Source: an uncultured delta proteobacterium
GTDB lineage: Bacteria; Desulfobacterota; Binatia; UBA9968
DNA length: 64,000 bases
Direction: 5' to 3'
Assembly: GCA_963840855.1 (NCBI GenBank)
Contig: CAWJBB010000002.1
Span: 64,001-128,000, forward strand
In this document: one piece after another, positions 10,405-20,484 of the stretch
How the letters are laid out: every line of letters starts with the position of its first letter
Position numbering within the stretch: position 1 is the stretch's first letter
The notes under the pieces: model-generated
Database searches by the model: none
The model's input: the letters and a program-made list of their open reading frames with translations, nothing else
What the model was told of the DNA's origin: nothing
Made by a program: the position numbers and the translations under genes

Positions 10405-11625
10405 ATGGATAACGCCCAATTTGCGGAGATCGCCGCCTGCATTACCGAAGCGGGTTTGGCTGGTCAATCTGAAACGGCGGCGCTTACCGGGTTCTGCGAA
10501 CGCGCTGTAGCTTTCGGATTACCGCTCGCTCGCGCAAACGTCGTCATCGACACGCTACATCCAGTTTATGAAGGCCGCGCCTTTACTTGGAAACGCCAAC
10601 AAAAGGAAACGACGCTCAGCGAGTATGGCCGAAACCCGGGGCGCTCGGAACGGTGGGAACGCAGCCCGTTTTACCGTCTCGAAGTCTCCGGCGAGTCGCT
10701 GCTCAAATGCCGGCTGACCGCGGCGACAGAGGCCATGTTTCCGATATTTTCCGAACTGCGTTTGGATGGCATCACCGACTATGTGGCGATCGCGAATCGG
10801 TTCGCCGCGGAGGGAATCATCGGCGAGATGGATTGCGTGTATTCGTCGTGGGCTACGGACGCGCCACAGGGGTTCGGCGATGCCGACGTCGCCGATCTAA
10901 GCCGACTCATGCCCTCATTCGCGCTCACGATGAAATCGGCGTCGCTGGCGCGGGTCGCGGAAACTTTGGTTGAGACCTATCTCGGGCGCGACGCGGGCCG
11001 GCGCGTGTTAGAAGGACGAATCGCGCGAGGCATCGCGGATCGGATTGAAGCAGTCCTGTGGTTTAGCGACCTGCGCAACTACACAAGGATCAGCGATTCG
11101 GCGGCGCCTGAGCAGATTATTCCTTTCCTTAACGACTACGCGGATGCGGTCATTTCGGCGATTCATCAGCAGGGGGGAGATGTCCTGAAACTGATGGGCG
11201 ACGGCGTGCTCGCCATATTCACAGCGGACGATCGTGGCCGCGCCTGCCTGGCGGCGCTCGCGGCCGCAGCCGATGCGCGCCGCGCCGTCGCGGCGGTAAA
11301 TCAGCGCCGAGCGGCGCAAAGTCTACCGACCACCGATATGTATCTCGGTCTTCACGTCGGCGAAGTATTTTACGGCAACATCGGGAGCCGCGAGCGCCTC
11401 GATTTCACGGTCGTCGGACCGGCGGTCAACGAAGTGAGCCGGATCGCCGGCTTGTGCCAATCCGTTGACCAGCCATTGCTCGTCTCCTCCGCCTTTGCGT
11501 CCGCGATCGGCGAACCGAAAAAACTGCTCGTCTCGGTCGGCCGATACGCCCTCCGCGGTGTCGGACGCCCCCAAGATTTATATACGCTCGAGAACAATGC
11601 GGGCGCCGCTGTCGTGGAGTCGTAA
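10405..11625 (+). CDS. Class III adenylate/guanylate cyclase
   Basis: WFSDLRNYT, VLKLMGDGVLAIF, GLHVGEVFYGNIG, FTVVGPAVNEVSRI. Confidence 0.9.
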   Translation: MDNAQFAEIAACITEAGLAGQSETAALTGFCERAVAFGLPLARANVVIDTLHPVYEGRAFTWKRQQKETTLSEYGRNPGRSERWERSPFYRLEVSGESLLKCRLTAATEAMFPIFSELRLDGITDYVAIANRFAAEGIIGEMDCVYSSWATDAPQGFGDADVADLSRLMPSFALTMKSASLARVAETLVETYLGRDAGRRVLEGRIARGIADRIEAVLWFSDLRNYTRISDSAAPEQIIPFLNDYADAVISAIHQQGGDVLKLMGDGVLAIFTADDRGRACLAALAAAADARRAVAAVNQRRAAQSLPTTDMYLGLHVGEVFYGNIGSRERLDFTVVGPAVNEVSRIAGLCQSVDQPLLVSSAFASAIGEPKKLLVSVGRYALRGVGRPQDLYTLENNAGAAVVES

Positions 11626-11660: not shown

Positions 11661-12635
11661 TTACCGCAGAAGACTCGGCAACCGACCTTTGATGATCTCC
11701 TCCGCCTCCCTGAGTATATCCTGGACAACTTCACTGACGCTCTTAATGGCGTCGATCAAGCCTGCGTCTTGACCGAAGGAAAGCGAGGCGTTGTCGACAT
11801 CGCCGGCGGCGCGGGCGGCGGCGACCTGCTGGCCGACCTCGCGCGCGTTTTGCCGCAACGCCCATTCGCGCCCCGACCAGCGCTCGATAAACTTGTTGCG
11901 CTGAGCGCGCGACATCGCGCCTGGCCAGACCCGTTGGCTCGCTAGATCGGGAATTTCGGTCAACACGGTGTCGTGGCCGTCGCTTTTGACGATGGCTTCT
12001 TTGAAGTTCGAATGAATCGGCGCTTCCGGCGTAGCCATGAATCGGGTGCCAAGCAACACACCTTCAGCTCCAAGAGCCAGCGCCGCCGCCAGGCCGCGTC
12101 CGTCGGCGATTCCACCGGCGGAGAGAACCGGCAGCGGCGCCACCGCGTTGACCATCATCGGCACCAGCGGCAAGGACGCCATCCAAACCACATGCCCTCC
12201 GGCTTCCGTGCCTTGCGCCACAAGGACGTCAGCCCCGGCTTCCGCGGCGCGGCGAGCTTCGGGAACCTCCCCGGCCATATACATGACCTTGCAGCCGACA
12301 TCGTGGGCGCGCTGAAAATAGTCGCGCAGGTCCTGGTCCTTTCGCGCCCACGCAAAGGCGGCGACCGCCGGTCGAGCGCGGAGCGTGACAGCGAACATGT
12401 CTTCCTGAATTTGAAACAATAGATGATTGATGCCGAATGGTTTGTCGGTGCGCTCGCGAATGGCGCCGATCTCGGTGTCCAACGTCGCGGCGTTGAATGC
12501 CGAGGTGCCAAGGGTGCCGAAGCCTCCGGCATTGGATACGGCGGCGACCAGCGGAGCGGTGGTCGCGGTGCCCATGCCGCCAAGAACGATCGGATGGGGA
12601 ATGTCGAGCAGATCGCAGATGCGCGTGTGAATCAT
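11661..12635 (-). CDS. Nitronate monooxygenase family flavoprotein
   Basis: HPIVLGGM, AAVSNAGGFG, AQGTEAGGH, AGGIADGRG, LGTRF. Confidence 0.9.
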   Translation of the reverse strand: MIHTRICDLLDIPHPIVLGGMGTATTAPLVAAVSNAGGFGTLGTSAFNAATLDTEIGAIRERTDKPFGINHLLFQIQEDMFAVTLRARPAVAAFAWARKDQDLRDYFQRAHDVGCKVMYMAGEVPEARRAAEAGADVLVAQGTEAGGHVVWMASLPLVPMMVNAVAPLPVLSAGGIADGRGLAAALALGAEGVLLGTRFMATPEAPIHSNFKEAIVKSDGHDTVLTEIPDLASQRVWPGAMSRAQRNKFIERWSGREWALRQNAREVGQQVAAARAAGDVDNASLSFGQDAGLIDAIKSVSEVVQDILREAEEIIKGRLPSLLR

Positions 12636-12866
12636 GACGCCTCCGATTCTCTTTAAGACTTCAGCCGTGCTTTCTAGCCCTAGCCGAATCAGCGCGCTTT
12701 GTAAAATCGAGATGATGTGAGGAAAACGTTGTGTCCGTAGCTGAACTTGAGATTACTCGGAACTGTTCACGGCAGCTTTCGGCTAGGGTTAGACTACAAA
12801 GAGGAGCTGGATTAGCTTGCGGGTCATTACGCGGCTATAATACTGCCAAGTTCACAGGAGGTTATC

Positions 12867-13469
12867 ATGTCATATATTCCATACGTCGATCTCGAAAAGA
12901 TTATCGACCCCGAGATTCGCGGGTATCTCGAGCGGGCCCGCAAGGAAGGCACGCCTCGGCCCGAGAGCCAGGCAATTCGAGCCAACAATCCCAACGTGAT
13001 CCGGGCGTTTTCGCAGGCGTGGGACCTAACGTTTCGGAACGGCGCTGTCGATCATAAACTCAAGGAAATGTGCCGGGTCTACGTGTCGAAATCCATCGAC
13101 TGCGAATATTGAGGCGTGCAGCGATCCGTCCAGGCTGGACGGCAGGGACTGTCGGAAGAGAATTACGATGAGCTCCTCAATTTTCAGCGCTCGGATAAGT
13201 TCACCGAGCGGGAGAAAGTGGCGCTCACGTACACCAGTGCGATCATCTGGAATTCCGATATTGCCGATGACGCCCTCTGGGAGAAGCTGCACCGCCACTT
13301 CACGATTCCCGAGCTCGTCGAGCTCGGATTTTTCATAGCGCTGACGTTCGGTCAGCAGCGCTGGATCAAGACTCTGGGTATCGGCCACGGTGAAATCTTG
13401 GCCGATAACGCTGCCGGACTTGCGGGTTCCCATAGCGACAAGATCGGGCTGCGGGAGACTGGGGGTTAA
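12867..13469 (+). CDS. AhpD/carboxymuconolactone decarboxylase family protein, probable selenoprotein (CxxU, UGA at 13110-13112)
   Basis: ORFs 12867-13112 and 13116-13469 share one frame; the joined protein reads ...SKSIDCEY*GVQRS...FTEREKVALTY...ELVELG; downstream hairpin. Confidence 0.85.
13113..13145 (+). promoter_or_regulatory. Putative bacterial SECIS element
   Basis: Stem ccgtcca (13126-13132)/tggacgg (13136-13142), G-initiated loop ggc about 20 nt after the UGA. Confidence 0.7.
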
Positions 13470-13585
13470 TTCCTACATGGTCCCGCACTGAGTCCAGACG
13501 TGTTCTACTAGGGCTGAAAGTTTTCGCGGGTTGCGCAAATGTTACCGTTGGTCTTTGCCCTTTAGCCACAGGAACTTAGGAATAT

Positions 13586-13662
13586 TATCGCGCCAAGGCG
13601 CCAAGAACGCCAAGTTCGGAATTGTTTTTTTCCTTTGCGGCCTTTGCGCCTTTGCGCGAGAT
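13586..13662. repeat. Intergenic palindromic repeat (cgccaagg/ctttgcg family); related motif near 57975-58002
   Basis: tcgcgccaaggcgccaagaacgccaag ... ctttgcggcctttgcgcctttgcgcgag. Confidence 0.55.
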
Positions 13663-13764
13663 GTTCCGGCTTTTGGTTGCGGCTCTGTTGCGCTAGGGGC
13701 ACTTGTAATTGGGAGCGATAAATTGTCTTGAACTTCGTTTCCCGGGCTGTGATGGCTGGAGCCT

Positions 13765-14844
13765 ATGCCAAATCAAGAAAAAATATTTACCGGTGAAATC
13801 GGTATTCACTATCCTCTCCATGTGCTCAATCGTTACTCGCTTCCTGAGTTGATCGGGCTTGCCGAGCGGGCGTGGCAGACCATGGAAAAACTTGGCTTTG
13901 GCCAGGTTTGGACCAACGACAATCTGGAGTACCGCAGCGTGTTGGCGAGTTCGGCGGCGATCGCGGCGCGCGTACCGGTCAAGCTCGGCACTGCGGTGAC
14001 CGTCCCCTACTTCCGTAATCCCGTCGATCTTGCCATGGCCTTTGCGACGATATCGGAGCTCACCAACGGCCGGGAGATTTCTCTCGGCTTGGGTCCCGGA
14101 TCGAGGTCGATACTCAAGCATCAAGTAGAGCGCGCCAAGCCGCTCGCGATCATGGCCGAATTGGCGACCGGCTTGCGAAAACTTTTCGCCGGCGAGGCGC
14201 TCAGGAGCAGTGAAATTCCCATTCTCGCGTCCTATTTCCACATGAACGCGGAGCAATACACGCTCCGCTTCAAAACCCGGTCGCCGATCCGTCTTTACTA
14301 CGGTCCGAGTCTCCTCAAGCCTGCCGTATTGGATCTGGTGGCGCGCCACTTCGACGGCGTGATCCTGCAAACTCTCTACGGCGTCGCCGACATGGAAGCG
14401 TCGCTTGAGCGCCTGCGGTTGGCGCGGTCGCAATCCGCGCTGCGCGAACCGCTGCGCAAAGTCATGCTGCTCAACGCGTCGGTTTCGCGCGACGGCCAGG
14501 CGGCCAGGCAGCACGCCAAAAGATTCGTTTCCCACATCGTATCCGGCTGGCCGGACGAAGTTCTGAAGACAAAGGGCATCGACCCGCAGGCGATTCGAGC
14601 TGTACGGCAAGCCTACGCGGAAAACCGCGGCGTCGACTACGCCGCCTCTCTGACTCCGGACGAAGCGGTGGATCGTTTGATCATCGCGGGCACACCGGCG
14701 CAGTGTAAAGAACGGATCGCCGAACTTTTCGCGCTGGCAGCCCGCGACGGTTTCACACAGGTCACGCTTGGCGTTCCGCTCGGACCCGATATCCCGGAGG
14801 TGATCGATCTCTGGGGCACAGAAATCCTGCCGGCGTTGCGCTAG
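13765..14844 (+). CDS. LLM class flavin/F420-dependent oxidoreductase
   Basis: GFGQVWTND, KLGTAVTVPYFRNP, ELTNGREISLGLGPG, AGTPAQC. Confidence 0.85.
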   Translation: MPNQEKIFTGEIGIHYPLHVLNRYSLPELIGLAERAWQTMEKLGFGQVWTNDNLEYRSVLASSAAIAARVPVKLGTAVTVPYFRNPVDLAMAFATISELTNGREISLGLGPGSRSILKHQVERAKPLAIMAELATGLRKLFAGEALRSSEIPILASYFHMNAEQYTLRFKTRSPIRLYYGPSLLKPAVLDLVARHFDGVILQTLYGVADMEASLERLRLARSQSALREPLRKVMLLNASVSRDGQAARQHAKRFVSHIVSGWPDEVLKTKGIDPQAIRAVRQAYAENRGVDYAASLTPDEAVDRLIIAGTPAQCKERIAELFALAARDGFTQVTLGVPLGPDIPEVIDLWGTEILPALR

Positions 14845-19926: not shown

Positions 19927-20484
19927 ATGGCTTGGATCAGAACATTTGACGAAAACGAGGCACGAGGACTGCTGAGTTGGGTCTATGGGGTTGCACGATG
20001 GAAGCGGGGGAGAGTCCCCAACATCGTCAAAGTTTCCAGTCTCAATCCGCGTCTTTTAGTCACTCTGGGTCCCCTCTTCCGCACGCTTATGGAGGGACCG
20101 TCGCCTCTGACCCGCGCACAGCGGAAGATGGTGGCCATTGTCGCTTCCAAAGTGAATAATTGCTTTTACTGAACTGAATCCAACGGAGAGTTTCTCCGTG
20201 AAGAGCTGAAGGACGTGGAAGTAGCTGATGCGCTCATGACAGATTATCGCGCCGCTTCCATCGAACCAGAGATGAAACATCTTTTATCCTTTGCGGAGAA
20301 GATGGCGCGGGATGCCAGCAAGATTACTCCGGAGGATATCGATAAAATCCGGACGGCCGGGTTCTCCGATCGAGCGATCCTGGATGCGGTCCACGTCACA
20401 GGCTTTTTTAGTTATATGAATCGAGTGGTACAGGCCCTAGGCGCTGACAGTAAAGGAGGTGATCCCCAAACCCTGAACGCGTAG
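19927..20484 (+). CDS. AhpD-like peroxidase-related protein, probable selenoprotein (CxxU, UGA at 20170-20172)
   Basis: In-frame join ...ASKVNNCFY*TESNGEFL...FAEKMARD...GFSDRAILDAVHVTGFFSYMNRV; aaggag RBS; downstream hairpin. Confidence 0.85.
20173..20200 (+). promoter_or_regulatory. Putative bacterial SECIS element
   Basis: Stem acggaga (20183-20189)/tctccgt (20193-20199), loop gtt starting 17 nt after the UGA. Confidence 0.7.

Follow-up and report, generated by a model that had tools for sequence, protein, structure and literature searches.

Selenoproteins of the AhpD-like type, in which selenocysteine (Sec) takes the place of the second Cys of a CxxC motif, have been in print since 2005. 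Survey sequences from the Sargasso Sea yielded 27 AhpD-like (COG2128, CxxU) and 4 CMD-domain (pfam02627, CxxU) selenoproteins (PMC1088965), and in the GOS data the families "AhpD-like 1" and "AhpD-like 2", with 299 and 70 sequences, respectively, are among the most abundant of the bacterial selenoprotein families (PMC2398784). A table in a 2026 review gives AhpD-like selenoproteins as TIGR01926 and PF02627 (PMC13188914), with AhpD-like/CMD selenoproteins also listed in BSepDB (PMC13326102). The kind of gene considered here was therefore already known, as a sequence-only reading of the same DNA had stated. Bacterial SECIS elements are described as having a small apical loop with a G in it, positioned shortly downstream of the UGA codon (PMC1088965).

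The window analysed here is a 64,000-nucleotide stretch of a contig assigned to an uncultured member of the Binatia, and our interest is in a single locus within it (Table 1). With a probability of roughly 93%, we read this locus as a single gene whose product is a selenoprotein of 200 residues from the AhpD/CMD superfamily, with Sec encoded by UGA at codon 82. It has in common with the published AhpD-like/CMD CxxU selenoproteins (i) the CMD/AhpD fold, (ii) predicted Sec as the second residue of the CxxC pair, (iii) abundant Cys-containing homologues, and (iv) a putative SECIS hairpin shortly downstream of the UGA, its apical loop being small and including a G. It differs from them in belonging to a subfamily with the motif C-x-Y-U/C-x-x-Q-R-S, i.e., without the His, and, whereas the marine AhpD-like selenoproteins came from plankton, record titles place the relatives of the window protein in soil, sediment, and groundwater lineages. 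No title related to the Binatota occurs among the listed literature matches on selenoproteins, nor does any word beginning with "Binat" occur in the available text of the 2026 selenoproteome papers PMC13188914 and PMC13326102; the exact subfamily may already be tabulated in the supplementary lists of PMC2398784 or PMC13188914.

A reading frame interrupted by one TGA codon

Under translation table 11, the locus falls into two open reading frames, 12867-13112 (81 aa) and 13116-13469 (117 aa), which share a common frame and have the TGA codon as their sole separator. The only start candidate for the second of these is a GTG directly 3' of that TGA. Once TGA is read as U, a 200-aa protein results, with the motif C79-E-Y-U82-G-V-Q-R-S. 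All of the sequence elements behind the original proposal, namely two same-frame reading frames split by a single TGA at the position of the second Cys of CxxC, are thus present.

The sequence-only reading had also named a way in which it might fail, i.e., that reads would show TGC or TGT at this codon, and this was looked at in contigs assembled from other runs, which keep the TGA. A DNA contig from run X1 spans 13050-13187 with 0 differences, while a contig from an RNA (metatranscriptome) library, run X15, spans 12964-13204 and is unchanged at the TGA; among the RNA-library contigs (X15 and X16), that of X15 is a record of presence across the TGA and is no proof of transcription. A promoter and terminator scan of 12600-13800 returned nothing above shuffle expectation of relevance to the selenoprotein gene, the single terminator-like site in that interval falling within the gene itself.

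Table 1. Positions of the probable selenoprotein gene, its elements, its neighbours, and the selB and selD genes (window coordinates unless a contig is given)
Feature	Position	Strand	Remarks
Whole selenoprotein gene, CMD/AhpD-like family	12867-13469	+	200 codons plus TAA (13467-13469), translated with TGA = U
Shine-Dalgarno sequence AGGAGG	12856-12861	+	5 nt upstream of the ATG at 12867; read from the sequence
Redox motif C79-E-Y-U82	13101-13112	+	Predicted Sec codon TGA at 13110-13112
Codons Q85-R86-S87	13119-13127	+	Invariant in the subfamily; R86 in place of the AhpD-type His
SECIS-type hairpin	13126-13142	+	7-bp stem CCGUCCA/UGGACGG, loop GGC; inside the coding sequence; arms 13126-13132 (CCGTCCA) and 13136-13142 (TGGACGG), loop 13133-13135
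NMO gene (Pfam)	11661-12635	-	Upstream neighbour
Luciferase-like monooxygenase (LLM) gene (Pfam)	13765-14844	+	Downstream neighbour
selD	C1:37592-38518	-	383 bits; in-frame TGA in ...K-A-A-G-U-A-A-K...
selB	C1:38613-40500	-	Split in two frames, 208 and 193 bits

Conservation of the TGA codon

Three independent sets of sequences were compared: (i) 40 related genomes searched with stops read through, (ii) a scan with a single genome for each GTDB species, which returned 80 loci, and (iii) a metagenome scan, which also returned 80 loci. Among the related genomes, all seven close orthologues (79-90% identity, aligned from residue 1 to ~190-200) contain exactly one TGA each, and in all seven it lies at the same codon (C-E-Y-U-G-V-Q-R/K-S), flanked by conserved protein sequence both before and behind it; four further homologues at ~53% identity read C-E-Y-C-G-N-Q-R-S. 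Codon 82 is TGA in 62 of the 80 GTDB species loci (60 by pattern, plus L056 and L087, which were read individually) and a Cys codon (TGC/TGT) in the other 18, all by pattern. The metagenome loci have TGA at this codon without exception (80/80). The sequence-only reading had proposed a search for homologues with Cys aligned to the UGA, and the 18 genome loci together with the four ~53% homologues supply them. A quick maximum-likelihood tree built from 79 sequences calls for a minimum of two changes in the Sec/Cys state.

At the protein level, the Sec site in 120 database members of the family, homologues of which are named "alkylhydroperoxidase family enzyme" by JGI, is occupied by Cys in 109, by Trp in 11, and by a gap in 1. 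The Trp residues most likely reflect TGA translated by gene callers under a TGA=Trp code; the gene, which the sequence-only reading expected pipelines to split, is thus mishandled by gene callers. TGA is not generally a sense codon in this organism, since three of the orthologues themselves terminate in TGA and the adjacent genes with Pfam support are uninterrupted when translated with table 11. One database protein from JGI (P0002, 200 aa) is 96% identical to the window protein and has Cys at the Sec site (C-E-Y-C-G-A-Q-R); its DNA was sought in metagenomes, where all 80 loci returned with P0002 as the query have TGA. This protein may represent a very recent switch from Sec to Cys.

The SECIS-type hairpin

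The hairpin that the sequence-only reading had picked out, CCGTCCA-GGC-TGGACGG, is exact; its stem begins 13 nt downstream of the TGA and the first G of its loop 21 nt downstream, close to the ~20 nt originally given. An alignment of the window with 60 TGA-bearing loci (61 sequences, 427 stem cells) shows standard pairing in 98.8% of the cells. Two-sided changes occur at four of the seven stem pairs, in 30 cells, a level reached by none of 500 shuffles, and the pairs swap from C-G to U-A or G-C, from G-C to C-G or A-U, from U-A to C-G, and from A-U to G-C. When the 3' arm is slid by 1-3 columns as a control, pairing drops to 18-44%.

The coding sequence is constrained at the same place. Across 133 distinct Sec-form sequences, synonymous entropy in codons 87-92 (S-V-Q-A-G-R), which hold the hairpin, is 0.20 bit versus 1.18 bit for 113 other conserved degenerate codons, and this is the lowest synonymous variation of the 75 six-codon windows compared. 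An identical 19-nt SECIS core is shared by 65 of the 80 metagenome copies, and the hairpin is restricted to TGA forms, the Cys-form sequences listed being without it.

Folding of the single sequence does not single the element out: neither the 71-nt stretch (z = 0.0) nor the 41 nt from the TGA (13110-13150; z = -0.17) folds better than shuffles, and for the isolated 25-mer of the hairpin z is -1.7, 13 of its 200 shuffled versions being equally stable. A rival stem, the minimum-free-energy fold of the 41 nt, was rejected, as it is paired in 77% of cells and two of its pairs are unpaired in 29-30 of the 61 sequences. An Rfam scan of 12600-13700 at E <= 10 returned two chance-level matches (rox2 and atpB) and no SECIS family. 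It is the comparative data, rather than single-sequence folding, that are decisive in indicating a hairpin conserved together with the TGA beyond chance. The putative SECIS thus combines a 7-bp stem and a GGC loop with pairing kept by selection, and, jointly with the conservation of the TGA, this backs the original proposal that the locus is one AhpD/CMD-family gene for a CxxU selenoprotein and that it carries a hairpin of the bacterial SECIS type.

Family membership and fold

The window gene is a member of the Pfam CMD/AhpD-like superfamily. Its match to Pfam CMD (PF02627) scores 29.7 bits against a gathering cut-off of 23 and covers residues 43-123, a domain that spans the TGA. Unlike the published AhpD-like/CMD selenoproteins, the window protein stays under the cut-offs of the NCBIfam models: the best match, NF053654 ("YciW-related (seleno)protein"), reaches 55.2 bits, far under its cut-off of 310, and TIGR01926 ("peroxidase-related enzyme") reaches 27.3 bits, under its curated cut-off of 81.8. 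Neither NF041047 nor NF041238 matches the window protein at E <= 0.01.

The closest PDB sequence is the Pseudomonas aeruginosa AhpD PA0269 (2ijc/2o4d/7xw1), in which C-A-Y-C-V-N-M-H aligns to C-E-Y-U-G-V-Q-R; on this alignment, the TGA stands for the second Cys of CxxC. The earlier observation that the usual His after CxxC is missing holds across the subfamily, Arg86 standing at that place, four residues beyond the second Cys, and being invariant in 61 aligned homologues. The same alignment shows C79, Q85, R86, S87, E67, and H63 to be invariant, with E67 located 12 residues N-terminal of C79, as is the corresponding Glu of PA0269 relative to its first Cys. With respect to the signature of AhpD proper, CxxU and Glu67 are therefore present, but the His position is Arg86, which places the protein outside AhpD proper.

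An AlphaFold2 model built from the 61-sequence alignment (pLDDT 92.6, pTM 0.87) matches 2prr, 7xw1, 6ohi, and 6k40 with a Foldseek probability of 1.00. The best full-length folds are found among Cys proteins of ~185-195 residues (2prr, 2pfx, 2oyo, 6k40, and the debrominase Bmp8, 6ohi/6ohj), at TM 0.67-0.80 though only 16-22% identity; the top matches of these are the AhpD-like "peroxidase-related" 2prr and 2oyo and the Deinococcus radiodurans alkyl hydroperoxide reductase 6k40 (TM 0.73-0.80). Further matches are to P. aeruginosa AhpD 7xw1 (TM 0.56 by query and 0.82 by target) and to Bmp8, the reductive debromination of which has no support for the window protein. With Mycobacterium tuberculosis AhpD (1gu9, 1lw1), the structural match is weak (TM 0.45-0.53, E about 0.5-1). 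The window protein shares with that enzyme and with PA0269 (2ijc, 2o4d, 7xw1) the all-helical AhpD fold and the place of the CxxC; it differs from AhpD in having Sec for the second Cys, Arg86 for the His, and no adjacent ahpC-like partner.

Other CMD genes were encountered in the same assembly. A second CMD/AhpD-like selenoprotein candidate lies at window 19927-20481 (+), with its TGA at 20170-20172 in the motif N-N-C-F-Y-U-T-E-S and a hairpin, GGAGA-GUU-UCUCC, beginning 13 nt after the TGA. At 132 bits on TIGR01926 (cut-off, 81.8), this candidate falls within the classical "AhpD-like protein" model, whereas the gene at 12867-13469 does not. Three distant CMD paralogues (24-25% identity) are found at C20:45675-46001 (+), which has one in-frame TGA, C2:150577-150933 (-), and C76:4534-4890 (-). 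The C2 and C76 copies score identically, which suggests duplicated sequence in the bin.

Genomic neighbourhood

The flanking genes had been correctly recognized as encoding a nitronate monooxygenase and an LLM, both identities being upheld by Pfam, but the role in flavin-dependent catabolism drawn from them does not survive comparison. When four neighbouring proteins were searched by tblastn against the 80 genome loci, the LLM and NMO genes recurred in only one, that of the closest relative (L036), where the NMO gene is downstream of the LLM gene, on the opposite side of the CMD gene compared to the window. Clustering of the two nearest open reading frames per side at 78 loci gave a largest recurrent family of 10/78, and the top clusters are functionally unrelated (adenylate cyclase, amidohydrolase, MurJ, glyoxalase, transketolase-like, and others). 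A function based on neighbours was rejected on these grounds, i.e., that the LLM/NMO pairing is not conserved and that no family occurs in more than 10 of 78 loci. With no conserved neighbour association in either comparison, the gene behaves as a stand-alone unit. No ahpC-like gene was found beside the window gene or among the clustered neighbours of related loci.

Within the window, a gene with an adenylate/guanylate cyclase domain is located at 10405-11625 (+), and it has no tblastn match in the 80 loci. The commonest neighbour of the orthologues (10/78) has a cyclase domain fused to a 2Fe-2S ferredoxin domain, e.g., at L041:3772-5478 (-).

Selenocysteine machinery and alternative readings

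The assembly (7.10 Mb in 93 contigs, 94% complete, 8% contamination) carries a selA-selB-selD cluster on contig C1, the window being on contig C2; this separation, together with the contamination, is a caveat on the selenoprotein reading. Of the Sec machinery that the sequence-only reading expected the genome to encode, both selA (616 bits) and selD (383 bits) are present and above cut-off, and selB is present though frameshifted; tRNA-Sec was not found. The in-frame TGA of selD makes the selenophosphate synthetase itself a predicted selenoprotein in this organism. In selB, one extra base near C1:39,985 interrupts the frame relative to the intact gene of a same-genus genome, G002 (415 bits, one frame), and there is no long homopolymer at that point; the break stems from faulty assembly or else from a very recent inactivation. 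As for tRNA-Sec, the best match to RF01852 in the 93 contigs (43 bits) is a tRNA-Ser, ARAGORN reports 39 tRNAs with neither a SeC tRNA nor a tmRNA among them, and blastn with the tRNA-SeC of G002 finds no match in the assembly. That gene in G002 is a 95-nt tRNA-SeC(tca) by ARAGORN, scoring 76 bits on RF01852, and tRNA-Sec matches of 64-79 bits are found in 16 of 24 relatives (14 of 22 when the unpublished G009 and G015 are set aside).

These two gaps bear on whether the gene could have been stranded, i.e., whether it is a selenoprotein by descent in an organism that recently lost Sec decoding, such that only the 81-residue N-terminal fragment would now be made. The extra base in selB, at a site free of long homopolymers, and the missing tRNA-Sec both point in that direction, and were the selB frameshift real, Sec insertion would currently fail in the organism. 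At least three more genes with in-frame TGA codons are nonetheless intact (selD, the CMD candidate at 19927-20481, and the C20 paralogue), and neither the SECIS of the window gene nor its downstream 118 codons show decay, both being 90% identical to G002. Several ordinary tRNAs are also missing from the 94% complete assembly, which has 39 in all, so the lack of tRNA-Sec may be an assembly gap, and the simpler account of the selB break is that one base was misassembled. We thus regard recent loss of decoding as improbable, and, given that the other TGA genes are intact, the selB break and the missing tRNA-Sec are taken as assembly defects.

Variant tRNAs that recode Sec codons to Cys are known, and the hairpin could in principle direct insertion of a residue other than Sec, whether Cys via a tRNA-Sec-like tRNA or Trp or Gly by read-through. 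The absence from the assembly of the tRNA that reads this UGA would fit such a reading. Against it, the genome has selA and a selD that itself contains Sec, a tRNA of the same-genus G002 is called tRNA-SeC(tca) by ARAGORN and scores 76 bits on RF01852, and the Trp of 11 among 120 database proteins is most likely due to callers using TGA=Trp; we hold such recoding to be very improbable. A reading as two separate genes, or as a sequencing error, with TGA a genuine stop codon or a misread TGC/TGT and the hairpin coincidental, would agree with the two open reading frames of standard gene calling and with the nonsignificant single-sequence folds but is already contradicted, and thus highly unlikely, given the TGA of 62/80 genome, 80/80 metagenome, and 7/7 orthologue loci in independent assemblies (with Cys in the other 18), the compensatory stem changes, the TGA kept in contigs of other runs, and a second reading frame that would have only a GTG directly after the TGA.

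Discussion

Our preferred reading of the locus remains that of one gene for a 200-residue selenoprotein. In this organism, SelB carrying Sec-tRNA(Sec) would bind the hairpin as a bacterial SECIS and deliver selenocysteine to the UGA, with translation then running on to the TAA at the end of the gene. AhpD-type proteins work by CxxC redox chemistry, in which the His of AhpD is the general base. By analogy with these CxxC proteins, the product is a predicted thiol/selenol oxidoreductase, in which Sec82, at the start of a short helix, would be the attacking nucleophile. Cys79 would resolve the reaction intermediate to give a selenenylsulfide, to be reduced in turn by a cellular reductant. Arg86, perhaps with Glu67 and His63, may take over from the AhpD His in adjusting the active site. 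A peroxiredoxin partner, a peroxide, or some other electrophile may be the physiological substrate, and the neighbouring genes offer no hint as to which.

By the record titles of metagenome-assembled genomes (MAGs), the subfamily is distributed across Candidatus Binatia, to which the window's own relatives belong, Ktedonobacterales, Actinomycetota, Burkholderiales, and Rokuibacteriota, from soil, sediment, and groundwater. The Sec form, with a near-invariant SECIS, is present in MAGs that carry the labels of five or more phyla (Binatota, Chloroflexota, Actinomycetota, Pseudomonadota, and Rokuibacteriota). Since both the labelling and the binning of MAGs can be wrong, this cross-phylum spread is a lead and not a result. 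We tentatively raise the possibility, itself rather doubtful, that C-x-Y-U-G-x-Q-R-S marks a functionally distinct and mainly Se-dependent clade of the AhpD superfamily, one that uses Arg for the His general base and that is without a curated model. Were this so, bacteria of soil and groundwater would have passed the gene and its SECIS jointly to one another through horizontal transfer, and the substrate would not be AhpC.

What is specific to the locus is the C-x-Y-U/C-x-x-Q-R-S motif with Arg for His, for which no curated model scores over its cut-off. For annotation, standard pipelines are expected to give either two fragments or a Trp-containing artefact in place of a predicted 200-residue selenoenzyme, and, since no NCBIfam model reaches its cut-off for the subfamily, many MAGs of Binatia and of other soil lineages are probably misannotated in the same way. 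The window gene leaves knowledge of Sec decoding and of AhpD chemistry unchanged. For the organism, it marks the lineage as a probable selenocysteine user with several predicted selenoproteins; for the family, it adds an abundant, terrestrial Arg-for-His subfamily to the AhpD-like selenoproteins.
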